A DNA stretch of 64,000 nt from Rhodanobacter sp. (GTDB taxonomy: Bacteria; Pseudomonadota; Gammaproteobacteria; Xanthomonadales; Rhodanobacteraceae): contig DATMQY010000005.1 in the NCBI GenBank assembly GCA_035566635.1, forward strand, positions 223,562 through 287,561. The letters run 5' to 3'. Numbering within the stretch: the first letter of the stretch is position 1; each line of letters starts with the position of its first letter. Under the pieces are notes generated by a model that worked only from the letters and a program-made list of their open reading frames with translations, was not told the origin of the DNA and made no database searches. Of the stretch, positions 9,381-54,470 are shown in pieces. The translations under genes and the position numbers were made by a program.

Positions 9381-10073
9381 TCAGTTCACGATAAAACGGT
9401 AGCCCACGCCCGGCTCCGTCTTCAGCCAGCGTGGCGCGGTCGGGTCGTCGCCCAGCTTCTGGCGCAACTTGCCCAGCACGATGCGCAGGTACTGGCTGTC
9501 GCTGGTATGGGTCGGCCCCCACACCGCGCGCAACAGCTGCTGCTGGGTGACCACCCGGCCGGCATGGCGCAGCAGCAGTTCCAGCACGGCGTATTCCTTG
9601 CGGGTCAAGGCCAGCGGCGCACCATCCAGGCTCACCTCGCGGCGTGCCAGGTCGATGCTGAGCCGGCCGTCGTCATAGCGTGGCGCCGACTCCGGTTCAC
9701 CGGGACGGTTGCGCAATAGCGCACGCAGGCGCGCCATCAGCTCCTGGATGCCGAACGGTTTGGTCACGTAGTCGTTGGCGCCATGATCGAGCGCATGCAC
9801 CTTCTCGCTCTCGGCGTCGCGCACGGAGAGCATCAGTACCGGCACCTGGCTCCACTGGCGCAGCTCGGCCAGCACGTCGTGGCCATCGCGATCGGGCAGG
9901 CCGATATCGAGAACCACCAGATCGGGCGACTGCATGGCCGCCAGCGCCAGCCCTTCCGCCGCGTTGGCGGCCAGCAGCACCTCGTAGCCTTCCGCGCGCA
10001 GGCCGATATCGAGGAAACGGCGGATCTGTGCCTCGTCGTCGATCACCAGGATGCGTGGAGCGGCTGAGGTCAT
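9381..10073 (-). CDS. kdpE: Response regulator KdpE (OmpR family)
   Basis: REC domain (ILVIDDE, LDIGLPD, KPF) plus winged helix (YLRIVLGKLRQKLGDDP, TEPGVGYR), downstream of kdpD. Confidence 0.93.
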   Translation of the reverse strand: MTSAAPRILVIDDEAQIRRFLDIGLRAEGYEVLLAANAAEGLALAAMQSPDLVVLDIGLPDRDGHDVLAELRQWSQVPVLMLSVRDAESEKVHALDHGANDYVTKPFGIQELMARLRALLRNRPGEPESAPRYDDGRLSIDLARREVSLDGAPLALTRKEYAVLELLLRHAGRVVTQQQLLRAVWGPTHTSDSQYLRIVLGKLRQKLGDDPTAPRWLKTEPGVGYRFIVN

Positions 10074-10083
10074 GGGGCTGGCG

Positions 10084-12750
10084 TCATGAGTCGGTATCGG
10101 GCGGCGGTGGCAAGGGCAGACTGATGCGGATGGTGGTGCCGATGCCGTCGCCGGGCAAGGCCTCCACGCTGCCGCCATGTGCGCCGATCATGCCGCGGCA
10201 GATCGCCAACCCCAGCCCGGTACCCTGCGGTGCGCGGTCGCCGCGCGATACCGAGTAGAACATGTCGAAGATGCGCACCCGCTCGTCTTCCGGTATGCCG
10301 GGGCCGCGATCGCTGACGTCGATCTGCAGGCGTTCGTCGTTGCTGTGCACGCTGACCCGTACTGGCTCGTCGGGCGGGGAGAAGCGCGCGGCGTTCTCCA
10401 GGATATTGAACAATGCCTGCTCGATCAGCGCCGGATGCACATAGAGCAGCAGCGGCTCGCTGGGTGACGCCGTCTCCACGCGCAGGTCTGGAAACAGCTT
10501 GCGCAGTCGCGTCACGGCCGCGGCAACGATCTCTGCGCTGTCGGTCCAGTCGCGGTTGAGCTTAAGCGTGCCGTGGCCGAGCCGGGTCATGTCGAGCAGG
10601 TTCTGGATGTAGCGGTCCAGCCGCTGCCCCTCGCCGAGAATCGCCTCCAGCAACTCGCGCCGTTCTTCCGGCGGCAGTTTCTGCTCGTAGCTGATCAGCG
10701 TGCCGGCGGCGCCGATCATCGAGGCCAGCGGCGAACGCAGGTCATGTGACACGGACGATAGCAGCGCGTTGCGCAGGCGCTCGGTCTCGCCCTGCACGCG
10801 TGCGCCTTCGAGTTCATCGGACAGTCGCGCACGCTCCAGCGCCTGGCCGATATCCTGCGTCATCGCCAGCGCGAGGCTGCGCTGGTCGGGATCGGGGTCC
10901 TTTATAACCGGATCGAAGCGCAATGCCATGGCGCCCAGCGGCCGGCTCTCACCACCCAGCGGCAGCACCCAGCATGGCGCGCCGTTCAAGGTATCGGTAT
11001 ATCGACCCGCCTGCTCGCCATGCCGGTCGCTCCAGTCGGCTGCGGCCAGATCCTGAGCCGACAGCACACGCTCCGGTGGCACGCTCGCCACCACGCGCAG
11101 CACCTGCTCCGCATCGCGGGCGAGGATCGCCACGTCGCAACGCAATGCATGCGCCAGCGCCTTGCTGCCGACGTCGCGGATGCCGCCGGCGTCAGTGCTG
11201 GTGGCCAGTTGCTGGCCCAGCGTGAGCAGCGCGCGCGCCTGCACGTGTGCGCCGCGCAAGGACTCCACCTGGCTGGCCAACCGCGTGGCGAGACGACTGC
11301 AGACCAGCGCCGCCACCAGGAACAGTGTCACCGCAAGCACGTCGTCGACGTTGGAGATCGCCAGGGTGTAGCGTGGTGGCGCAAAGAAGAAGTTGTAGCC
11401 GAGGAAACACATGATGGCCGTATAGACGGCCACTGACATGCGCGTGCGTACCGCCACCACCAGCACCGCGGTGAGGAAGATCAGTGACAGGTTTGCCACC
11501 GACAGGTAACGGTCGGCAACGAACGCCAGACCGAACGCGACTAGCGTGGTAAGCGTGGCGTAGATGTACTCACTACGCGAGCCACGCCCAGACGGCAGAC
11601 GCAACCGGCGGCGCGCCTTCGCCCGCTCGCTCGGCGTAGCGATGATCGTCAGCTCCAGGTGCGCACCGCGGCGTAGCAGCAACTGGGTCAGCGAACGACC
11701 CAACATGCGCGCCACCACACGCTCGCGGGTACGGCCGAGGATGATCTGGCCGACGCCCTCACGGTCGGCATGTGCGATCAGTTCATCCGCAATCGCGTGA
11801 CCGCGCAGGATGATCGCCTCGCCGCCGAGCCGGCGCGTCAGCCGCATTGCCGCATCCAGCTGCTCGCGTCGTGCAGGATCCAGCCTGGCGCCGGTATCGA
11901 CGTAGGCGACGCTCCACGGTGCACCGCGACGCTCGGCGATGCGCCTCGCCACGCGCACCAGGTACTCGCTCTGACCGTGGCCGTCGATCGCCGCCAGCAC
12001 GCGGCGACGCACCGTCATCGCGCTGCCGCGCGCCAGCATGTGCTCGCGCAGGTCGCTGTCCACATGACCGGCGATGGTGTCCACCGCCAGCTCGCGCAAC
12101 GCGGCCAGATTGGTGGGCGAGAAGAACGCATCGAGCGCGGCAGCAGCCGTTTCCGGCACGTAAACCTTGCCCTGCTTCAATCGCACGATCAGTTCGCGGG
12201 GTGGCAGATCGACCAGCACGATGTCACGCGCCCGATCGAGAAAGGCGTCGGGCACCGTCTCGCGCACGGTCACGCCGGTGATGCGCCGCACCTGGTCGTT
12301 GAGGCTTTCCAGGTGCTGCACATTGAGCGCGCTGTACACCTCGATGCCGGCATCGAGCAGCTCGGCGATATCCTGCCAACGCCGCTCGTGGCGGCCACCC
12401 GGCAAGTTGCGATGCGCCAGTTCGTCGACCAGCAGCACCGCCGGTTTACGCGCCAGCGCCGCATCCAGATCGAACTCGGTGAAATCGCGGTCGTGGTAAC
12501 GCACCGGTCGGCGTGGCAACACCTCCATGCCGTCCAGCAGCGCCGCGGTTTCGGCACGGCCGTGAGTCTCGACCACGCCGACCACCACGTCCACGCCCTG
12601 CCGCTTCAGCTCGCGCGCCGCCGACAGCATCGCGTAGGTCTTGCCGACACCGGGCGCGGCGCCGAGAAAGATCTTCAGTCGATGGTTACGCTCACCCTGC
12701 CCGGTGCTCAGCAGGGCATCGGCACGCGCTTCGCGGGATGGTTCGGTCAT
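10084..12750 (-). CDS. kdpD: Sensor histidine kinase KdpD
   Basis: LKIFLGAAPGVGKTYAML, VDELAH, USP-like domain, 4 TM segments, GAF, H-box SVSHDLRSPL, GTGLGLAIC. Confidence 0.97.
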   Translation of the reverse strand: MTEPSREARADALLSTGQGERNHRLKIFLGAAPGVGKTYAMLSAARELKRQGVDVVVGVVETHGRAETAALLDGMEVLPRRPVRYHDRDFTEFDLDAALARKPAVLLVDELAHRNLPGGRHERRWQDIAELLDAGIEVYSALNVQHLESLNDQVRRITGVTVRETVPDAFLDRARDIVLVDLPPRELIVRLKQGKVYVPETAAAALDAFFSPTNLAALRELAVDTIAGHVDSDLREHMLARGSAMTVRRRVLAAIDGHGQSEYLVRVARRIAERRGAPWSVAYVDTGARLDPARREQLDAAMRLTRRLGGEAIILRGHAIADELIAHADREGVGQIILGRTRERVVARMLGRSLTQLLLRRGAHLELTIIATPSERAKARRRLRLPSGRGSRSEYIYATLTTLVAFGLAFVADRYLSVANLSLIFLTAVLVVAVRTRMSVAVYTAIMCFLGYNFFFAPPRYTLAISNVDDVLAVTLFLVAALVCSRLATRLASQVESLRGAHVQARALLTLGQQLATSTDAGGIRDVGSKALAHALRCDVAILARDAEQVLRVVASVPPERVLSAQDLAAADWSDRHGEQAGRYTDTLNGAPCWVLPLGGESRPLGAMALRFDPVIKDPDPDQRSLALAMTQDIGQALERARLSDELEGARVQGETERLRNALLSSVSHDLRSPLASMIGAAGTLISYEQKLPPEERRELLEAILGEGQRLDRYIQNLLDMTRLGHGTLKLNRDWTDSAEIVAAAVTRLRKLFPDLRVETASPSEPLLLYVHPALIEQALFNILENAARFSPPDEPVRVSVHSNDERLQIDVSDRGPGIPEDERVRIFDMFYSVSRGDRAPQGTGLGLAICRGMIGAHGGSVEALPGDGIGTTIRISLPLPPPPDTDS

Positions 12751-12797: not shown

Positions 12798-13397
12798 TTA
12801 GCGCGATCCGATGCCTTGCGCCTGCACTGCATCCAGCGCGAGGTTGAGCTGCAGCACGTTCACCCGTGGCTCGCCAAGCAGGCCGAGCTGACGACTGCGG
12901 GTGTATTCGCTCACCAGCGCCTTTAAATGCGCGGTGCCGAGTCCACGCGCCTTCGCCACGCGCGCCAGCTGGTATTGCGCCGCGGCCGGGCTGATCTCCG
13001 GATCGAGGCCGCTGCCAGAGGCGGTGACCAGATCCACCGGCACCGGCGCGGTATTGCCCGGGTCGGCCGCACGCAGCGCGACCATGCGCTGCTTCACCGC
13101 ATCGGTGAGTGCCGGATTGGTCGGCCCCAGGTTGGAGCCGCCGGAGTTGGTGCCGTTGTCCGCCTGCGGCGTGGTCGTGGACGGCCGACCCCAGAAATAT
13201 TTCGGGTCGGTGAACGACTGGCCGATCAGCGCGGAACCGACCGGCTTGCCGTCCTTCACGATCAGGCTGCCGTTGGCCTGGTGCGGAAAGATCAGCTGGG
13301 CCAGCCCGGTGGCGGCCAGCGGATAAAGCACGCCGGTGATCACCGTCATCAGCAACAGCAGCATCACGGCATTGCGCAAGAGCTTGGTCATGGCCAT
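12798..13397 (-). CDS. kdpC: Kdp-ATPase subunit C
   Basis: QANGSLI...[56 protein letters not shown]. Confidence 0.97.
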
Positions 13398-13401
13398 CAC
13401 C

Positions 13402-14919
13402 TCAGTAGTGCAGGATCGCGTCGAGCAGCGCGGTCACCTGATAGTTCTTCTTGCCGCCGTCATACGCCGGGAAATCATAAGCACGCTCGTAGCGGAATTC
13501 CGGCCGGATCTCCAGATCCGGCGACACCCAGTGGGTCATGCCGATCGTGTGGCTGGAGTAGCGCGTGGCGAAACCGGTGCGCTGACCCTGCGCGTCCTTA
13601 TAGAACTCGTTCCGGATCGATATCATGTTGCTCGGGTCGAGCTCGATGTTGAAGTAGTTGACGACGCCGTAAGCGGGGTTGTTGCCCAGCGGGAAATTCG
13701 GTGCCTGCCCAAGCGGATACCCGGGCTTTCCGGTCGGTGCTTGTGACTCCCAGGGGTCGGTAGTCAGAGCCTGGTCGCGTACGTAAATGCGATAGGCCTC
13801 CGTCAACATATGCACATTGGGGCTGAAACGGTGGCCCCAGGTCAGCACGAATTCCTGCAAATTGTTGTAGGTCTGCTTGGATTTGTTATACGACTCCACG
13901 CAGGGATACAGCATGTCGTTGTTGGACTTGGACACCCAGCGCACGCAGGCCTGCGCGCTCAGCCGGCTGGTGCTGTCCCAGATCGCCGAATCGTCGCCGC
14001 CATGCACTCCGAGCTGCAGCGTCCACTGGTCGCTGAGCTTGGTGGTGGTGATGATGCCCATGTTGGTATACGCATCGACGGTGTACAGGATCGAGTGCGT
14101 CATCAGGTAATTATTGGGCGAGAACTGCGCCTCGATGTCGGGCAGCGACAGATAACGACCCGCAGTGATCACCATGCCCTGCGCGACCCACGGGATGTAC
14201 AGGTCCACATACGCGATCATCGGATCGTTGCCGTAGATCTTGCCGTTGAGCGGCTGGCTCGGCGCGGGATGGTTGAGCAGCTGGTCGCTGGTCACTCCCT
14301 TCATCGTGGTGTAGTGGTAGTCGTAGCCGTAGAGATCGTCGAAATGGAAGCCCCAGTCGATGTGATCGGTCTGCACCGTGTCGGGAACGCGCTGGATGCG
14401 GAACAACGCCTGGTCGAATTCCACCCGGTTCGGCCGCGTCGCGTAGGACAGCGGATAGTTCGTGAAATTCGAGCTGCTGAGGTTCATCGACGGATTGATC
14501 CAGCCATACATCTCGATGCGGTTGTCCTGCATCCAGTGGCCAACGCTGGTGCACGACAGTGCCTTCTCCAGCGGATACTGCGAGTTTTCGTTCGGCACGC
14601 CTATCGGAAATTCCACGCCGCCAAGCTGCCACTCGGCCGACGGGAACGGTGGCGAGCTGAACGGTGAATCCATGCCGCGGCGCTTGGCGGCAGGCGCGTT
14701 CGGATCGGCCGGCTGCGCGTCCTCGCGATAGGCGGCGGCCAGACGGCTGAGGAATCCCGCAGAACAATCGTTGCTGGCGACATGCGTGGATGCCGGTGTC
14801 GATATGACCGATTGCGGATCCGGTGTATTACTGCCTGATCCCGCAGTCGTGGCCATCAATTGGCCGATCGGCAGCATCGCGAACAGGACTGCACTGGAAA
14901 GCATTTTCTTGCACAACAT
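13402..14919 (-). CDS. Outer-membrane beta-barrel protein (BBP2/OmpL-like putative porin) inside the kdp operon
   Basis: Signal peptide [23 protein letters not shown], aromatic-rich amphipathic strands, C-terminal aromatic residue (ILHY). The motifs [11 protein letters not shown] and [12 protein letters not shown] resemble the BBP2 family (from memory). Confidence 0.75.
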
Positions 14920-14989
14920 AGGAAACCCCTGCAACGGCGGTTCGCATCGAACCGCATCTGGTGGTGAATGAAAAATATCTCGTGTGGTG

Positions 14990-15202
14990 TCAGATGCCGG
15001 CGTAACCGCCAAGCACGTAATCGTCGTTGTCACCGCGCGATGCCTCCGTATCGCGTGGCACCGCGGTCACCTGAGCTGTCCGGCTCGACTGCATGGGCAG
15101 GGCAATGATCACATCGCAGTCCGAATCGTTGGCCGACAACCGCAGCTCCATGTCGGGATGGGTTTCGTCGGGCATCGATACCGAAAGTTTCAGCGTTTGC
15201 AT
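14990..15202 (-). CDS. Small acidic hypothetical protein (70 aa) directly after kdpB
   Basis: kdpB stop TGA is followed by GGAG-N7-ATG. Protein: MQTLKLSVSMPDETHPDMELRLSANDSDCDVII...DNDDYVLGGYAGI. Confidence 0.6.
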   Translation of the reverse strand: MQTLKLSVSMPDETHPDMELRLSANDSDCDVIIALPMQSSRTAQVTAVPRDTEASRGDNDDYVLGGYAGI

Positions 15203-15213
15203 GACTTCACTCC

Positions 15214-17286
15214 TCACGCCAGCCCGCACAGGACCAGCAGCATGTCGATGATCTTGATGCCGAGGAACGGCACCGCGATGCCGCCCAGGCCGTAAACCAG
15301 CAGGTTCCGGCGCAGCAGCGCGCCAGCGCCGAGCGCACGGTACTTCACACCTTTCAGCGCCAGCGGTATCAGGAAGATGATGATCAGCGCGTTGAAGATC
15401 ACCGCCGACAGGATCGCGCTCTGCGGCGTCGCCAGATGCATCACGTTGAGCGCGTTGAGCGCCGGATAGGTTGTCGCGAACGCGGCCGGAATGATCGCGA
15501 AGTACTTCGCGATGTCGTTGGAAATCGAGAACGTGGTCAGCGAGCCGCGGGTGATCAGCATCTGCTTGCCGATCTCCACCACCTCGATCAGCTTGGTCGG
15601 GTTGGAGTCGAGGTCGACCATGTTGCCGGCTTCCTTCGCGGCCTGCGTACCGGTGTTCATCGCCACCGCCACGTCGGCCTGGGCCAGTGCCGGCGCATCG
15701 TTGGTGCCGTCGCCGCACATCGCCACCAGCCGGTTCTCGGCCTGGATGTCGCGGATCAGCTTGAGTTTGGCTTCCGGCGTGGCTTCGGCGAGGAAATCGT
15801 CGACACCGGCCTCAGCGGCGATCGCCGCGGCGGTAAGCGGGTTGTCGCCGGTGATCATGATGGTCTTGATGCCCATCCGGCGCATCTCGGCGAAGCGCTC
15901 CTTGATGCCGCCCTTGACGATGTCCTTCAGCTCGATCACGCCTAGTGCGCGGGGGCCTTCGGTGACGATCAGCGGGGTAGCGCCGCGCCGCGCGATGTCC
16001 TCGGCCATGCGCTTGACCAACGGCGGAAGATGGCTGTTCTGCGCCTCCAGATGCTTCTCCACGGCATCCAGTGCACCCTTGCGGATCTGCCGCGTACCGA
16101 AATCAACGCCGCTCATGCGGGTCTGCGCGGTGAACGGCACGAACTGCGCGTGCATCGCCTCAAGCTGCTGTTCACGCAACCCGAAGTTATCCTTCGCCAG
16201 CACCACGATGCTGCGACCCTCCGGTGTTTCGTCGGCGAGCGAGGCAAGCTGCGCAGCCTCGGCCATGATCTTTTCGTCAATGCCCGGTGCCGGATAAAAC
16301 GCCACCGCCTGGCGATTGCCCAGCGTGATGGTGCCGGTCTTGTCCAGCAGCAACACGTCGACGTCGCCAGCAGCCTCGACCGCACGGCCCGAAGTGGCAA
16401 TCACGTTGGCGCGGATCATCCGATCCATGCCGGCGATGCCGATCGCCGACAGCAGCGCGCCGATCGTGGTGGGAATCAGGCAGACCAGCAGCGCGACCAG
16501 CACAGTGAGCGTGATCGGATGCCCCACGCCGGCGACCTGCACGCTGTAGATCGAATACGGCAGCAGCGTGGCGCAGGCGAGCAGGAAGATCAGGGTGAAC
16601 TTCGCCAGCAGGATCGTCAGCGCGATCTCGTTCGGCGTCTTGCGCCGCTTGGAGCCTTCGACCATCGCGATCATGCGGTCGAGGAAGCTCTCGCCGGGGT
16701 TGCTGGTGATGCGCACCACCAGCCAGTCCGACAGCACCCGCGTGCCGCCGGTAACCGCGCTGCGGTCGCCACCGGATTCGCGGATCACCGGCGCGGATTC
16801 GCCGGTGATCGCGCTTTCGTCCACGCTGGCCGCGCCGACCACCACTTCGCCGTCGCCGGGCATCTGCTCACCGGCCTCGACCAGCACGTGATTGCCGGTA
16901 CGCAGATCGCTGGACGGGACGAACGTGATCGCCGCCGTGCGATCGGGGCCCGCCAGTTTCTTCGCGATCACATCCTTGCGCGAACTGCGTAGTGCATCGG
17001 CCTGCGCCTTGCCACGACCTTCCGCCAGCGCCTCGGCGAAGTTCGCGAACAGCAGCGTGAACCACAGCCACAGGCTGACCCAGAAGATGAAACCGGTCGG
17101 CGCCTCGCCATGACCGGCGAGCGCCTGCACCCACAGCAAGGTGGTCAGCACGCTGCAGACGAATACAACGAACATCACCGGATTGCGGAACTGCAATCGT
17201 GGCGACAGCTTGCGGAACGAATCGGCCATCGCCGTGAGAACCAGCTCGCGGTTGAAGCCGCTAACTGCATGCGTTTGCGAAGTCAT
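15214..17286 (-). CDS. kdpB: Kdp-ATPase subunit B (P-type ATPase)
   Basis: NPVMFVV, TGES, DKTGT phosphorylation site, [17 protein letters not shown]. Confidence 0.98.
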
Positions 17287-17307: not shown

Positions 17308-19110
17308 TCAGTGGGCCGACATCAGATATTCGGCGATCGGCCCGAGGGCCAGCGCCGGCAGGAAGGTGAGCGCGCCGATCACGATCACCACGCAGGCCAG
17401 CAGCGTGATGAACAGCGGCGTATGCGTAGGCAGCGTGCCGGCCGATTCGGGCACGTGCCGCTTGGCCGCGAGCGAGCCGGCCAACGCCAGCATCGCGATG
17501 GCGAGCGGATAGCGGGCGAGGAACATGCAGATGCTGAGCAGCACGTTCCAGAACGGTGTGTTCGCCGAGAGTCCGCCGAACGCGCTGCCGTTGTTGTTGG
17601 AGGCCGAGCTGACCGCGTAGAGGATCTCGCTGAAGCCGTGCGCCCCGGGATTGGCGATACCCGCCACCCCGGCAGGCACCATCACTGCGACCGCCGTGCC
17701 GATCACCACCAGCGCGCACGGCAGCAGCACCGCGAGGCTGGCCATCTTCATCTCGTACGCCTCGATCTTCTTGCCGAGGTATTCCGGCGTGCGGCCCACC
17801 ATCAAGCCGGCGATGAATACCGCCACTACAGCGAACGCGAGCATGCCGTACAGACCCGAGCCGACGCCGCCGAAGATCACCTCGCCGAGCTGGATCAGCC
17901 ACATCGGCACCAGGCCACCCAGCGGCGTCAACGAATCGTGCATCGCGTTCACCGCACCGCAGGACGCTGCCGTGGTGATCGCCGCGAACAGACCGGACGA
18001 AGCGATGCCGAAGCGCGTCTCCTTGCCCTCCATGTTGCCGCCGGCCTGCAGCGTCGAGGCGTGCTGATCGACCGCCAGTCCATGCAGCGCGGGGTTGCCG
18101 GCCTGCTCGGCTGCAACCAGGGCGATCGTCAGCGGAATGAAGATCAGCAGCATGGTGGCGAGGATGGCCCAGCCCTGGCGCCGATCGCCTACCAGCTTGC
18201 CGAACATGTAGCAGAGGCTGCCAGGAATCAGGAAGATCGCCAGCATCTCGATGAAGTTGGAGAACGGCGTGGGGTTCTCGTACGGATGCGCCGAGTTCGC
18301 GTTGAAGAAGCCACCGCCATTGGTGCCGAGCATCTTGATCGCGATCTGCGACGCAGCCGGCCCCATCGGCAGGGTCTGCGTGGTGAGCGGCGTTTCTTTG
18401 GTCACTTCATGACCTACGGCATCTTTCACCGCATTGCCGGCCGCATCCTTCACCGTCTCGGTGTAGCTGCTGGTCTGCAGGACCGGCACATCCACATACG
18501 GCCTGAAGTTCTGCACCACGCCCTGCGATACCAGCAGCAGCGCGATCAGCAACGACAGCGGCATCAGCACGTACAGCGTGCTGCGCGTGAGATCGACCCA
18601 GAAGTTGCCGATGCTGAGCGAGCTGCGCCGGGCAAAGCCGCGTACCACCGCCACCAGCACCGCAATGCCGGTCGCCGCGGAGAGGAAGTTCTGCACCGCC
18701 AGACCTGACATCTGGGTCAGGTAGCTCATCGTCGACTCGCCGACGTAGCCCTGCCAGTTGGTATTGGTAGCGAAGCTGATCGCGGTGTTCATTGCCGAAT
18801 CCGGCGACACCGCGCCGAAGTGCTGCGGATTCAGCGGCAGCCACTGCTGCACGCGCTGCAGCACATACACCGCCAGCACGCCGAGCACGTTGAACAGCAG
18901 CATGGCCAGCGCGTAGCGCTTCCAGCTCATGCCATCGTCACTGCGGATGCCGCATAGACGATAGATGCCGCGCTCCACGCGGGCGCCGAAACGTGTGACC
19001 CGGTTCGGTGCATCCGCGAACACCAGCGCCATGTAGCTGCCCACCGGCTTCACCAGCAGCAGCAACACGACCAGGTACAGGCCGACCTGCAGGAAATCAT
19101 TGGTGGTCAT
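17308..19110 (-). CDS. kdpA: Kdp-ATPase subunit A
   Basis: SFATNTNWQGY, LGTNGGGFFNANSAHPYENP, GGVGSGLYG, NNGSAFGGL selectivity-filter motifs. Confidence 0.98.
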   Translation of the reverse strand: MTTNDFLQVGLYLVVLLLLVKPVGSYMALVFADAPNRVTRFGARVERGIYRLCGIRSDDGMSWKRYALAMLLFNVLGVLAVYVLQRVQQWLPLNPQHFGAVSPDSAMNTAISFATNTNWQGYVGESTMSYLTQMSGLAVQNFLSAATGIAVLVAVVRGFARRSSLSIGNFWVDLTRSTLYVLMPLSLLIALLLVSQGVVQNFRPYVDVPVLQTSSYTETVKDAAGNAVKDAVGHEVTKETPLTTQTLPMGPAASQIAIKMLGTNGGGFFNANSAHPYENPTPFSNFIEMLAIFLIPGSLCYMFGKLVGDRRQGWAILATMLLIFIPLTIALVAAEQAGNPALHGLAVDQHASTLQAGGNMEGKETRFGIASSGLFAAITTAASCGAVNAMHDSLTPLGGLVPMWLIQLGEVIFGGVGSGLYGMLAFAVVAVFIAGLMVGRTPEYLGKKIEAYEMKMASLAVLLPCALVVIGTAVAVMVPAGVAGIANPGAHGFSEILYAVSSASNNNGSAFGGLSANTPFWNVLLSICMFLARYPLAIAMLALAGSLAAKRHVPESAGTLPTHTPLFITLLACVVIVIGALTFLPALALGPIAEYLMSAH

Positions 19111-19244: not shown

Positions 19245-19337
19245 CTACTTGCGCGGACTCAGCCGGTCGCAGATCAGCGCAAAGCCCAGCGTGGCCGCGC
19301 ACAGCACGAGCAGGAACAACAGGTAGACGAAATCCAT
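19245..19337 (-). CDS. Second small hydrophobic peptide (30 aa) upstream of kdpF
   Basis: Translated by hand: MDFVYLLFLLVLCAATLGFALICDRLSPRK*. GGAG RBS upstream, single TM helix. Confidence 0.7.
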   Translation of the reverse strand: MDFVYLLFLLVLCAATLGFALICDRLSPRK

Positions 19338-19414
19338 CGGCGTCGACTCCATGAAAGGACGACGCACACTGTAGGAAGTACCGCATAAGATCGGGGTAGC
19401 GATTCGGCCGCTAC

Positions 19415-19432
19415 GCGTATAGAACGCGTAAA
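19415..19432 (-). promoter_or_regulatory. Candidate KdpE-binding tandem repeat
   Basis: Minus strand TTTACGC-gttc-TATACGC (11-bp periodicity), upstream of a -10-like TACAGT at 19368-19373. Confidence 0.45.
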
Positions 19433-50157: not shown

Positions 50158-53100
50158 ATGCGCCCGAACCGATCAAACCGTTCCTGGCTGGCCGACCAGC
50201 CGTTGCAGCGCAAGATGACGCTGGCGATCAGCCTGCTGCTGGGCCTGTTCCTGCTGACCAGCGGGATCACCCTGCACTCGCTGCATCAGCAGGAAAGCAA
50301 TCGGCACTGGGCCATGCACACCTACCAGGTGCTGCTCGAACTCGATGACGTGCAACGGGTGGTGCAAGGCAACCAGGTCGATGCGCGCGACTACATGCTA
50401 TCCCCCGGCACGAACCAGCTGGCGCTGTTCAAGGGCGCGACGCGCGACTTGCATGACCGCCTCGCCGAGCTGCGCCGCCTGACGGCCGACAACGTGTTGC
50501 AGCAGTCACGCATCGACTCGATCGAAGCGTTGGCGGCCCGATGGCAGCAGGAGATCACAGACAACGCGATCAATCCATTGACCGCGCTGGATCTCGGCAA
50601 CCCGGCTGCGGGCGTGGAACGGCAACGTATCCAGTCGAGCTATATGCAGCATCGCACCGTTCGGATCGAGGATCTGTCGATGCTGCTCGACCAGATGACG
50701 GCCGAGGAAAACCTGCTGTTGGTCACGCGCAAAGCGCAGCTGGATCGTACGCTTACCACCACCATGGTGATCAACGCGGTGGCGATCCTGCTGGGCCTCA
50801 TCCTCGGCATCGTGGTGATCCGGCTGACCTCGCGGCTGATCACCCGACCGCTGCGCAACCTGACCGACCTGTTGAACCGGCTGACAAAGCATGACCACAA
50901 TTTCGAGGTCGACCGGCTCGATCGGCGCGACGAGATCGGCGAAATCGCGCGCACGCTGCAGGTGTTCAAGCAGATGTCGCTCGATACGCAGGCGCAGACC
51001 TGGATCAAGGCGCAGGTCTCGGGCATTTCCCATCTTCTGCTGCAGGCCCCCACGCACAAGGAGTTCGCGCAATGGTTCATCAGCGAGCTGGTGCCGCTGT
51101 GCGAGGCCGGGGTGGGTCTGTTCTATTCGTACGATGACGCACGGCATCGACTCGACCTGCTGGGCAGCTACGGCCTGCGCCTGCGCAACCGTTCGTCGGA
51201 TCACTACATGCCCGGCGAAGGGCTGGTCGGGCAGTGCGCCGTGGAACGCAAGGCGATCATCCTCGATAACGTGCCGGCTGATTACCTGCACATCGACTCC
51301 GGCAGCGGCGAAGCGCTGCCCGGCCATCTGGCGATCCTGCCGGTGCTCTACCGAGACACCCTGATCGGCGTGCTGGAACTGGCCGGCTTCACCGCGCTCA
51401 GCCCGCTGCACCGTCAACTGCTGGAGGAACTCCTGCCGCTCGTTGCGTTGACCCTGGAAAACCTCAACCGCACGATCAGCACGCACGATCTGTTATTGCG
51501 CACGCAGGAGCAGGCCGACGAGCTGCGCGTGTCCGAGCTGGTAATGCGCCAGCAGAAACAAGTGCTGCGCGACAACAACGATGCCCTGCATGCGAAGACG
51601 GCCGAACTCGAACAGCAGTCCGAACGGCTGATCGCCTCGGAGGACGAACTGCGCAGGCAGGCCGACGAACTGCAGGCGTCCAACGCAGAATTGCGCGTAA
51701 CGACCGACGAGCTCGCGCGGGCCAGCCAGTACAAGTCCGAGTTCCTGGCCAACATGTCGCACGAGTTGCGCACACCGTTGAACAGCCTGCTGATCCTCTC
51801 GCGCAGCCTCGCCGACAACGACAGCGGCAATCTCAATGGAGAGCAGGTCGAATCGGCACGGGTCATCCATGACGCCGGCAACAGCCTGCTGTACCTGATC
51901 AACGACATCCTCGACCTGTCCAAGATCGAGGCCGGCAAGATGGAACTGATCATCGACGAGCTGTCGCTGACCGAGCTGGAACGGCGGCTCCGGCGCAGCT
52001 TTGCGCATGTCGCCGAGCAGAAGGGACTGGGTTTCACGCTGGAGATCGGGCCCGGCTTGCCGGCGATCCTGCACACCGATGCAGGCAAGCTCGAACAGAT
52101 CACCAACAACCTGCTCAGCAACGCATTCAAGTTCACCGTGCGCGGCGGGGTCAGCGTGCGGATCGGCCGGCCCGGCAGCGAACTCGCCGTCCCCGCCGCG
52201 CTGCGCGACCAGCCGCTGCTCGCGCTGACGGTCAGTGACACCGGCATCGGCATCCCGCGCGACAAGTTCGAGCGCATCTTCAACGCGTTCGAACAGGTCG
52301 ATGCGGGCACCAGTCGGCAGTTCGGCGGCACCGGGCTGGGCCTGGCGATCTCGCGGCGAATGGCCTTGCTGCTGGGCGGCGACATCGTGCTACACAGTGA
52401 AAGCGGTCGCGGCAGCGCCTTCACCGTGCTGCTGCCCGAGACGCCGCCGGCGCCATCACTCGAATCGGCCGACGCCGCGCCAAGGCCAAACACTGCAACG
52501 CCGGCGCGAGCGACATCGCCGCACCTGTTGCCGGACGTGGTCGACGACGACCGTCATTCGCTGCTGCCCGGTCAGACCACGATCCTGGTGATCGAGGACG
52601 ACCCCGTGTTTGCGCGCATCCTGATCGACATGATCCACCGCAAAGGCTACCGCGCACTGGCCGCTGCCGATGGCGAATCCGGATTGCTGCTGGCGCGACA
52701 GCATCGCCCCAGCGGCATCCTGCTGGATGTCGCGCTGCCGACGATGGATGGCTGGGCGGTGCTCGACCAGCTCCGCGCCGACGACGCCACCCGCACGATT
52801 CCGGTGCACTGCATCTCGGTCACCGACGAGGCCCCGCGCGCGCTGGCACGCGGCGCGATCGGCTTCCTGACCAAGCCGGTCAGCCGCGAATCGATCGGGC
52901 TCGCGCTCGAACGCCTGCTGCTCGTCGCCAGCGGGCAGCAGGCCGGGGATAACGGCGGCAGCGCCGTGCCCGCGACGGCCGGTCCGCCACCACCGGTCGC
53001 GGGACTGAGCGGCCATCGAGTGCTACTGGTGGACGACGATATGCGCAATCTGTTTGCGCTGTCCAAGGTGCTGCGTGGCTGGGGGTTGCAGGTGAGCCTG

Positions 53101-53379
53101 GCGCAGGACGGCCACAAGGCGTTGAGGATGCTGGCCGACGAGGCCGCCCCGGAGCTGCTTCTGATGGACATCATGATGCCGGGCATGGACGGCTACGAGG
53201 TGCTGCGCACGATCCGCGCGCAGCCGCGGTTCGCCCAGTTGCCGATCATCGCGCTGACCGCCAAGGCGATGCATGGCGATCGCGAGAAGTGCATGGCCAT
53301 GGGCGCCAGCGACTATCTGTCCAAACCGATCGACATCGATCGGCTGGCGGCCATGCTGCGGAGCTGGCTGCCGCGTTGA
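50158..53379 (+). CDS. Hybrid sensor kinase (CHASE3-HAMP-GAF-HisKA-HATPase-REC-REC)
   Basis: WAMHTYQV (CHASE3), RRDEIGEIA (HAMP), GEGLVGQ (GAF), SHELRTPLNS, GTGLGLAIS, two REC domains. Confidence 0.9.
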   Translation: MRPNRSNRSWLADQPLQRKMTLAISLLLGLFLLTSGITLHSLHQQESNRHWAMHTYQVLLELDDVQRVVQGNQVDARDYMLSPGTNQLALFKGATRDLHDRLAELRRLTADNVLQQSRIDSIEALAARWQQEITDNAINPLTALDLGNPAAGVERQRIQSSYMQHRTVRIEDLSMLLDQMTAEENLLLVTRKAQLDRTLTTTMVINAVAILLGLILGIVVIRLTSRLITRPLRNLTDLLNRLTKHDHNFEVDRLDRRDEIGEIARTLQVFKQMSLDTQAQTWIKAQVSGISHLLLQAPTHKEFAQWFISELVPLCEAGVGLFYSYDDARHRLDLLGSYGLRLRNRSSDHYMPGEGLVGQCAVERKAIILDNVPADYLHIDSGSGEALPGHLAILPVLYRDTLIGVLELAGFTALSPLHRQLLEELLPLVALTLENLNRTISTHDLLLRTQEQADELRVSELVMRQQKQVLRDNNDALHAKTAELEQQSERLIASEDELRRQADELQASNAELRVTTDELARASQYKSEFLANMSHELRTPLNSLLILSRSLADNDSGNLNGEQVESARVIHDAGNSLLYLINDILDLSKIEAGKMELIIDELSLTELERRLRRSFAHVAEQKGLGFTLEIGPGLPAILHTDAGKLEQITNNLLSNAFKFTVRGGVSVRIGRPGSELAVPAALRDQPLLALTVSDTGIGIPRDKFERIFNAFEQVDAGTSRQFGGTGLGLAISRRMALLLGGDIVLHSESGRGSAFTVLLPETPPAPSLESADAAPRPNTATPARATSPHLLPDVVDDDRHSLLPGQTTILVIEDDPVFARILIDMIHRKGYRALAAADGESGLLLARQHRPSGILLDVALPTMDGWAVLDQLRADDATRTIPVHCISVTDEAPRALARGAIGFLTKPVSRESIGLALERLLLVASGQQAGDNGGSAVPATAGPPPPVAGLSGHRVLLVDDDMRNLFALSKVLRGWGLQVSLAQDGHKALRMLADEAAPELLLMDIMMPGMDGYEVLRTIRAQPRFAQLPIIALTAKAMHGDREKCMAMGASDYLSKPIDIDRLAAMLRSWLPR

Positions 53380-53477
53380 TCCCCCGGCCTCGGTGGCGGC
53401 AATGCCGCTAATTTCACACCGATCGGCAATGGCGCGGTTTAAGGTTGCCACACGGGATGCCACTTGGTGCGAACGTG

Positions 53478-54470
53478 ATGCTGCCGAAAATTCTGATCGT
53501 CGACGATACCGCCGCCAACCTGGTTGCCATGCGCCGACTGCTCGCACACAGCGGTGCGCAGATCTTCGAGGCGCGCAGCGGCAACGAAGCGCTGGCGTTG
53601 TGCCTGGATCACCGGTTTGCGTTGATCCTGCTCGACGTCCACATGCCCGACATGGACGGTTTCGAGGTGGCCACCTTGCTGGGCGAGGCCGAGCAACTGC
53701 GCGACACACCGATCATCTTCGTCACCGCCGCCTATGCCGATGACCTGAACCGCCTCAAGGGTTACCGCTCCGGCGCCGTCGATTACATCGCCAAGCCGAT
53801 CAACGACGTGATCCTGCAGTCCAAGGTACGCGTGTTCCTGGAGCTGTATGCGGCGCGTGCCGAACTGCAGCAGGCCATGGCCGAACTGGCCGAGCGCAAC
53901 CAGCAGCTCACTCAGGAAGTCGCCGAACGCGAGCTGATCGAGGCGATGGTTCGCCACCAGGCCAGCCACGATATGTTGACCGGCCTGCCGAACCGCATGC
54001 TGTTCCGCGACCGGCTGCACGTGGCGATTCAGCGCGCGCATCGCCATCACGACAGCTTCGCGCTGGCCTGCATCGACATCGACGGCTTCAAGGACATCAA
54101 CGACGAACATGGCCATCCGGCCGGCGACGCTTTGCTGCAGGACATCGCGGCGCGGCTGTCGGCGCAGCTGCGCGGCAACGACACCGTGGCGCGGCTGGGC
54201 GGCGACGAATTCGCGCTGATCCTGGAGGACATCGAGGATCCGCAGCAGGCACTGCAGCTCTGCCAGAAATTGTGTGCGGCGCTGAGCGAGCCTTACGCGC
54301 TGCGCGTCAACGGCAGTTCGGTCGACGTGCGCATCGGCGCCAGCATCGGTATCGTGCCCTACCTTCCCGATGACCGGCCCGATGCCGACGAGCAGTTGAT
54401 CCAGGCCGCCGACCGCGCCATGTATACGGCCAAGCGCAGCGGCAAGAATCGTTGCGTGCTGGCAGACTGA
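53478..54470 (+). CDS. REC-GGDEF diguanylate cyclase
   Basis: REC (IVDD, LDVHMP, KP), HDMLTGLPNR, RxxD I-site (RGND), intact GGDEF. Confidence 0.93.
   Translation: MLPKILIVDDTAANLVAMRRLLAHSGAQIFEARSGNEALALCLDHRFALILLDVHMPDMDGFEVATLLGEAEQLRDTPIIFVTAAYADDLNRLKGYRSGAVDYIAKPINDVILQSKVRVFLELYAARAELQQAMAELAERNQQLTQEVAERELIEAMVRHQASHDMLTGLPNRMLFRDRLHVAIQRAHRHHDSFALACIDIDGFKDINDEHGHPAGDALLQDIAARLSAQLRGNDTVARLGGDEFALILEDIEDPQQALQLCQKLCAALSEPYALRVNGSSVDVRIGASIGIVPYLPDDRPDADEQLIQAADRAMYTAKRSGKNRCVLAD

Follow-up and report, generated by a model that had tools for sequence, protein, structure and literature searches.

In a soil Rhodanobacter, the genes for subunits KdpB and KdpC of the potassium pump KdpFABC are separated by a gene for a predicted outer-membrane beta-barrel of the BBP2 family (hereafter the porin), and relatives of this porin adjoin kdp genes in three phyla. 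The locus lies in a 64,000-nucleotide stretch of contig DATMQY010000005.1 (the window), where nine genes on the minus strand – orf35, kdpF, kdpA, kdpB, orf70, porin, kdpC, kdpD and kdpE – follow one another with gaps of 0-70 nt. On balance we lean towards the view that the product is a cation-favoring, 16-stranded diffusion porin made together with the Kdp pump, and that it raises the supply of K+ across the outer membrane. The characterized KdpFABC complex consists of four inner-membrane subunits and is not known to have an outer-membrane partner.

An earlier note on this DNA had described a 505-amino-acid open reading frame (ORF) dividing kdpB from kdpC, endowed with a signal peptide and a C-terminal aromatic residue; a kdpC ribosome-binding site, GAGGTG, overlapping the stop codon of that ORF; and two extra small ORFs bringing the kdp operon to nine genes. 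Each of these observations is borne out. The ORF (13402..14919, minus strand) is flanked by kdpB (TIGR01497) and kdpC (NF001454), both protein termini have the expected sequence features (the C-terminus ends in ...ILHY), the kdpC ribosome-binding site (13403-13398) overlaps the TGA of the porin (13404-13402), and the two small ORFs (orf35 and orf70) are both conserved.

Linkage of the porin gene to kdp

The genomic distribution of the porin was examined in 27 loci from a scan of one genome per species and 80 loci from a metagenome scan. Within the clade of at least 60% identity (Rhodanobacter, Dyella, Luteibacter, Pinirhizobacter and Xanthomonas) 39 of 40 loci adjoin kdp genes; the sole exception, from X. 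maliensis, is a sequence that ends 149 nt after the porin. In 36 of the 40 the porin separates kdpB from kdpC (flanks are cut short in others), and the order in Rhodanobacteraceae is always kdpB-(orf70)-porin-kdpC, with 5-77 nt separating the porin from kdpC.

The arrangement differs in Xanthomonas translucens, where the porin is found directly upstream of a divergent kdpFABC. Because the porins of this species are 77-82% identical to that of the window, whereas identity is 39-40% for KdpA (59% for KdpB and 49-50% for KdpC), the comparison suggests that the X. translucens porin was acquired horizontally and inserted beside a resident divergent kdp operon. Xanthomonas porins also nest among Dyella sequences in a neighbor-joining tree (without support values). 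The pattern suggests that the porin moved independently, yet ended beside kdp again.

Linkage extends to distant homologs (38-47% identity): 13 of 67 such loci are kdp-linked, as are 6 of the 16 that have at least 4 kb on both flanks. Gene orders in the linked loci include porin-kdpABC, kdpABC-porin-kdpDE and kdpC-porin-kdpA, so that the neighbor of the porin is, depending on lineage, kdpC, kdpA or kdpD. In the neighbor-joining tree the distant kdp-linked homologs form several separate clades interspersed with unlinked ones: one of these is Chthoniobacterales (Verrucomicrobiota), another Candidatus Acidiferrum (Acidobacteriota). Linkage to kdp is thus found in three phyla – in a gammaproteobacterial lineage, in Verrucomicrobiota and in Acidobacteriota. 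Since a kdp operon takes up some 8 kb of a multi-megabase genome, we estimate the frequency of chance adjacency at well under 1%; the linkage of porin and kdp is more than chance, and the co-occurrence that the earlier note had put forward for checking is there in nearly all of the close loci and in a minority of the distant ones.

Unlinked homologs adjoin varied genes (other BBP2 paralogs, an OEP efflux protein, a copper-type P-ATPase, an EF-hand protein), and among their neighbors no single alternative theme was found. This variety suggests a broader family of cation-favoring porins from which members were recruited by kdp operons. A search of plasmids returned a single 'porin' of 23% identity, in a nif/isc context.

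Two further features of these loci were observed. Chthoniobacterales-type loci (L112; also L082 and L083) carry a second, shorter KdpA-like gene (504 aa; 10041-11555 in L112) 3' of the porin, giving the order kdpABC-porin-kdpA'-kdpDE; a KdpA paralog without its own KdpB and KdpC is unusual. BBP2 paralogs with a fused N-terminal CarboxypepD_reg domain are present in L078 (9636-11681) and eight other metagenome loci (presumed to be of the Acidobacteria type), where they often adjoin an unfused BBP2 homolog.

Family and predicted fold of the porin

The hidden Markov model search suggested in the earlier note placed the protein in BBP2 (Pfam PF07642): the match scores 95.3 bits (cut-off 26.2; E 5.5e-27), covers profile positions 9-338 of 339, and is the sole Pfam match at E ≤ 1. 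Porin_1, Porin_4 and Porin_O_P give no match in the same scan, no NCBIfam model is matched, and a sequence search of the PDB with the family profile gave three weak matches only (E ≥ 0.012), all to unrelated proteins and none to a porin; judged by sequence, no solved structure belongs to the family. Databases label the protein merely 'outer membrane beta-barrel protein' or 'hypothetical'. Its N-terminus, judged by eye from the sequence, is signal-peptide-like (a basic n-region, a hydrophobic core and A at -1), while the last residue of the C-terminal ...LLDAILHY is aromatic (Tyr), with hydrophobic residues at -2, -4 and -6.

Structure was predicted with AlphaFold2, once from an alignment of 40 close homologs (predicted local distance difference test, pLDDT, 71; predicted template-modeling score 0.72) and once from 46 sequences that included homologs at about 40% identity (pLDDT 64). 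Confidence was not higher with the more diverse alignment, and the topology was reproduced. Both models contain a helix at residues 56-68, short helices at 116-132 and, as a structural check on the barrel proposed in the earlier note, 16 strands across residues 135-504. Long loops (10-36 residues) follow odd strands and short turns (2-10 residues) follow even strands: this alternation is the canonical porin pattern of 16 antiparallel strands with long external loops and, on the periplasmic side, short turns. When the model was compared with the PDB using Foldseek, the top of the list consisted solely of outer-membrane porins. The best matches – DcaP, Omp32, BpsOmp38, OmpF, PorB and OprP – are 16-stranded trimeric porins, found with E-values down to 3e-11 and a probability of 1.00 at about 10% identity; target-normalized template-modeling scores (for DcaP, Omp32, OmpF and OprP) range from 0.58 to 0.68. 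Its profile match and its predicted fold mark the protein as a BBP2-family beta-barrel of the outer membrane, which would probably be a trimer with 16 strands per barrel.

The barrel is preceded by an N-terminal extension composed of a variable Ala/Pro-rich linker, a helix and a SPPFPxxxWxxGG motif. Its motifs are kept in homologs at 29-43% identity, taken irrespective of genomic context, and the extension and its motifs appear to be family-wide and not specific to the kdp-embedded clade. Conservation within the alignment of homologs (mean column identity 67%, >100 invariant positions) indicates that the protein is under strong purifying selection. A contig from a metagenome-assembled genome matches the porin of the window at 99% identity.

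The most conserved segment of the family is the loop of 27 residues that joins strand 5 to strand 6; it occupies the place of L3, the constriction loop, in classical 16-stranded porins. This loop contains three acidic and zero basic residues in the porin of the window, and two to five acidic and zero basic residues (net charge -2 to -5) in the 20 family members displayed; part of it has low pLDDT in the second model, and it may fold into the lumen. Predicted lumen-facing residues comprise 17 D+E against 9 K+R (by a crude inside/outside assignment of strand residues), and the isoelectric point of the mature porin is 5.3. Such an acidic lining, as modeled, fits a cation-favoring channel.

Promoter element and transcription

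A direct repeat, TTTACGCGTTCTATACGC, stands 5' of the operon. Of the 18 regions upstream of orf35/kdpF that were aligned (L019 not covered), 17 share it in the form TTTACG-N5-T-N-TA-Y-GC. Half-sites spaced by 11 bp are typical of OmpR-family regulators, and because the repeat has this spacing we infer that it is a KdpE box. A consensus scan detected neither a terminator-like site in the interval from kdpB to kdpC nor a sigma-70-like promoter within the operon.

RNA evidence comes from three sources. In four root-associated libraries (which contain a Dyella close to D. jiangningensis) a 4758-nt contig runs from inside the porin through kdpC, kdpD and kdpE, and other contigs span kdpB-orf70 and porin-kdpC-kdpD. 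In four Xanthomonas libraries the porin is covered at a depth of 8-14 and kdpA/B at 7-16; much of the DNA just 5' of the porin has zero depth, which argues against DNA contamination in these libraries. A soil metatranscriptome contains small contigs that lie within the porin gene of the window and match it exactly. Given one upstream KdpE-box-like element, the lack of a terminator between kdpB and kdpC in the scan, and RNA contigs that span the junctions, the porin is very probably co-expressed with the pump. Co-transcription with kdp is well supported in Rhodanobacteraceae; it is not the Xanthomonas arrangement. The co-expression proposed in the earlier note is very probable for Rhodanobacteraceae (upstream box, RNA contigs); in X. 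translucens the porin appears to be on a separate transcript.

Proposed role of the porin

If the porin is a diffusion channel serving Kdp, it would be transcribed within the kdp operon from a KdpDE-controlled promoter 5' of orf35/kdpF and would thus be made, together with KdpFABC, when K+ is scarce. Its acidic, cation-favoring lining would raise the permeability of the outer membrane to K+, and the periplasm could then be resupplied fast enough for a pump of micromolar affinity to benefit at low K+. By our own figures, a water-filled pore of ~0.5 nm² would let through no more than a few hundred K+ each second at a gradient of 1 µM, whereas the cell has to take in roughly 10^4 to 10^5 ions in that time, so that it would need hundreds to thousands of open pores. 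Pore supply can be limiting in bacteria that have few open general porins, or porins that close at low pH. Evidence for the role at low pH that the earlier note had raised is circumstantial – the carrier taxa are typical of acid soils – and the idea is not borne out beyond this.

A number of observations weigh against this reading. Potassium is usually assumed to pass outer membranes freely via general porins, and an acidic lining is also common among non-specific (general) porins. Since a single column of the alignment (Q298, as opposed to H/R) separates the five kdp-linked clades from the ten well-flanked unlinked homologs, the sequences do not indicate a K+-specific filter. Of the 16 distant homologs flanked by at least 4 kb on either side, ten have no kdp genes nearby. 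The Dyella RNA contigs are unstranded assemblies, in which DNA carry-over is possible. In Xanthomonas the porin and kdpF-A fall on separate RNA contigs with a KdpE-like box between them: the X. translucens repeat, TTTACGCAGAATTTATGC, is located between the porin and kdpF (L017, 7452-7469; L024, 7554-7571). Co-regulation is therefore not universal, the X. translucens porin being upstream of the box and apparently separately transcribed. Finally, a TCDB survey lists BBP2 (TC 1.B.66) as a family of unknown structure and function (PMC4827864).

The porin might instead be co-expressed with Kdp to meet some other need of the same stress, be it the passage of NH4+, polyamines, another cation or an osmolyte, or the remodeling or stabilization of the outer membrane when ionic strength is low or following an osmotic upshift. 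That most distant homologs are unlinked to kdp and sit next to varied genes would suit such a role, as would the lack of a distinguishing sequence signature among kdp-linked members and the fact that kdp in well-studied systems responds to osmotic and ionic signals besides K+. We nevertheless hold it to be rather unlikely: the porin is associated with kdpABC independently in three phyla, with several different gene orders, which points to the substrate of the pump, and no other transporter or enzyme accompanies the porin with any consistency. A stronger form of the potassium hypothesis, which we judge improbable, is that kdp-linked BBP2 proteins are K+-selective (or K+/NH4+-discriminating) channels that form an obligatory first stage of high-affinity uptake in outer membranes of low permeability, possibly docking to KdpC/KdpA, on their periplasmic face, via the conserved N-terminal extension. 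If this were true, Kdp in these soil bacteria would be a two-membrane system.

Physical contact is also at the heart of the strong form of the proposal, made in the earlier note, of a trans-envelope system or scaffold. In this form the barrel would dock onto KdpFABC, with its N-terminal extension meeting, for instance, the periplasmic domain of KdpC, and the two would make up a conduit or scaffold across the envelope. The porin does adjoin kdpC with overlapping translation signals in Rhodanobacteraceae, and its extension of ~110 residues, with a confidently predicted helix, would be periplasmic. However, the extension and its motifs appear to be common to the whole family (at 29-43% identity), and adjacency to kdpC is not kept: elsewhere the porin adjoins kdpA or kdpD, and so variable a gene position argues against a fixed Kdp partner. 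Moreover, the porin has no TonB box, no membrane-fusion-type partner or adaptor and no periplasm-spanning domain. The proposal was not borne out, and we consider such a conduit quite improbable. Very improbable, in our estimation, is that the porin is a passenger, inserted once and kept by inertia without a functional tie to potassium. Its GC content (0.59-0.60, against 0.64-0.69 in the flanking kdp genes) and the nesting of Xanthomonas copies among Dyella in the unsupported neighbor-joining tree, suggesting mobility, are what a passenger might display; set against these are the linkage kept in 39 of 40 close loci, the transferred Xanthomonas copy that again lies beside kdp, the separate kdp-linked clades in Verrucomicrobiota and Acidobacteriota, and the strong purifying selection indicated by a mean column identity of 67% and >100 invariant positions.

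Comparison with known systems

The locus shares with the KdpFABC-KdpDE system of E. coli the genes kdpF to kdpE, in the same order, and an upstream KdpE-box-like repeat; it differs by three extra genes (orf35, orf70 and the porin) and by the broken adjacency of kdpB and kdpC. The nearest precedent for a diffusion porin working with a high-affinity pump is provided by phosphate: OprP/OprO of Pseudomonas and PhoE of E. coli are phosphate-starvation porins that work with the Pst transporter. The logic is alike, in that a 16-stranded trimeric porin is made with a high-affinity pump under scarcity, and OprP (2o4v) has the highest query-normalized template-modeling score (0.48) among the 50 matches listed. 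Nonetheless, OprP is about 9% identical, with no sequence relationship, and is anion-specific with an arginine ladder where the predicted lining of the porin is net acidic. Further, the genes for OprP and PhoE belong to a regulon and are located apart from those of the transporter, whereas the porin of the window stands amid the genes for the pump subunits.

For cations there is the precedent of MnoP from Bradyrhizobium japonicum, an Mn2+ channel of the outer membrane that is co-regulated with MntH: here too a small metal cation has an outer-membrane channel of its own, induced along with an inner-membrane transporter when the cation is scarce. MnoP belongs to another protein family, has a divalent substrate and is not known to be encoded in the transporter operon. 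The best structural match is DcaP of Acinetobacter baumannii (6eus; E 3e-11), a trimeric porin of 16 strands whose N-terminus carries a helical extension in the periplasm, comparable to the helix predicted at residues 56-68 before the barrel of the window's porin. It differs in sequence (10% identity), in its preference for dicarboxylates and other anions, and in having no known link to kdp. A loose parallel is found in Caulobacter, where a TonB-dependent receptor is reported to be induced by K+ depletion.

As a member of BBP2/1.B.66 the porin scores well above the curated threshold, and the beta-barrel prediction for the family agrees with the models; these have 16 strands, as against the 10-18 guessed by TCDB, and a link to kdp is absent from the family description. 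A search of open-access PubMed Central and bioRxiv did not turn up any account of a porin within or next to kdp operons, although a description in a subscription journal is possible. What is new here is a known pump with a new accessory, or – seen from the side of regulation – a known logic with a new substrate and a new porin family.

Uptake of K+ in Gram-negative bacteria is invariably depicted as a problem of the inner membrane, the outer membrane being assumed to be freely permeable. A kdp-adjoining porin in Gammaproteobacteria, Verrucomicrobiota and Acidobacteria suggests that this assumption fails for some bacteria. The carrier groups are typical of nutrient-poor, often acid soils; in the bacteria concerned, entry across the outer membrane would be selected together with the pump. 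The linkage also offers a first functional handle on BBP2/TC 1.B.66, a family with 1478 representative clusters at 50% identity and no characterized member; should the porin prove dispensable, the conserved synteny would still have to be explained.

Organization of the locus

The coordinates of the locus are given in Table 1. None of the genes from kdpF to kdpE is missing; they follow the canonical order and are strong equivalog matches.

Table 1. Features of the kdp locus in the window.
Feature	Position	Strand	Remarks
KdpE-box-like direct repeat TTTACGCGTTCTATACGC	19415..19432	-	5' of operon; sole match in the 64-kb window
orf35, small hydrophobic peptide (MESTPMDFVYLLFLLVLCAATLGFALICDRLSPRK)	19245..19352	-	conserved start probably second ATG at 19337
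kdpF, 30 aa	19107..19199	-	TIGR02115 E 1.3e-9; stop overlaps kdpA start in ATGA
kdpA	17308..19110	-	TIGR00680 E 1.5e-228
kdpB, P-type ATPase subunit	15214..17286	-	TIGR01497 E 0; Pfam E1-E2_ATPase and Hydrolase
orf70, small acidic protein without signal peptide	14990..15202	-	GAGGAG ribosome-binding site overlaps kdpB stop
Intercistronic hairpin GCGGTTCG-ATG-CGAACCGC	14937..14955	-	just 5' of porin ribosome-binding site
Porin ribosome-binding site AGGGG	14926-14930	-	read from sequence
Porin gene, 505 aa, BBP2 family	13402..14919	-	Pfam PF07642 E 5.5e-27
Porin predicted signal peptide, residues 1-23	14851..14919	-	sequence features; homolog N-termini align here
Porin N-terminal extension, residues 24-134	14518..14850	-	variable linker, helix 56-68, conserved motif
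Porin strand 5-6 loop, residues 258-284	14068..14148	-	position of L3 constriction loop of 16-stranded porins
kdpC ribosome-binding site GAGGTG	13398..13403	-	overlaps porin stop TGA (13404-13402)
kdpC	12798..13391	-	Pfam KdpC E 1e-77; NF001454 E 3e-82; profile position 1 = ATG at 13391
kdpD sensor kinase	10084..12750	-	NF007793 E 8.5e-196
kdpE response regulator	9381..10073	-	NF007820 E 1.2e-70

The porin ORF comprises 505 codons plus TGA on the minus strand, beginning with the ATG at 14919. A longer form of 543 aa, from a GTG at 15033, is unlikely: it overlaps the 3' end of the conserved orf70, and homologs align from the ATG at 14919 with the consensus MxxKKxL. The junction between porin and kdpC is tight and, as read from the sequence, compatible with translational coupling. 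The lower GC content noted above applies across the porin (window positions 13500-15000) and fits either a foreign origin or the amino-acid bias of beta-barrels.

Both small ORFs are kept in place. orf35 is found directly 5' of kdpF in nearly all aligned Rhodanobacteraceae loci; its peptide, with the pattern MD(F/V)(I/V)YLLF...ICDRL, is distinct from KdpF and has no NCBIfam match. orf70, which encodes a protein of 65-75 aa across Rhodanobacteraceae, is kept in all aligned loci of the family and always sits between kdpB and the porin. Throughout Rhodanobacteraceae its C-terminus, (D/E)(D/E)xYxLGGYAGI (DDYVLGGYAGI in the window), does not vary, while third codon positions do. Neither Pfam nor NCBIfam gave a match for orf70; among its 303 homologs all that carry a name are called 'hypothetical', and the named ones come from Dyella, Rhodanobacter or Frateuria. 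On this pattern of conservation orf70 is a real, lineage-restricted gene.

The position of the intercistronic hairpin is conserved, and in a comparison of 11 loci two of its base pairs show changes in both partners. The sequence after the hairpin is TTT(T/G)CAGG, which is not a strong U-tract. The hairpin could be a leaky (partial) terminator, or an element of processing or mRNA stability, that sets the ratio of kdpFAB to porin-kdpCDE.

Elsewhere in the window (51595-53840, plus strand) tblastn with KdpD and KdpE detected a segment resembling a histidine kinase and, after it, three receiver-domain segments in tandem, an unrelated signaling cluster.

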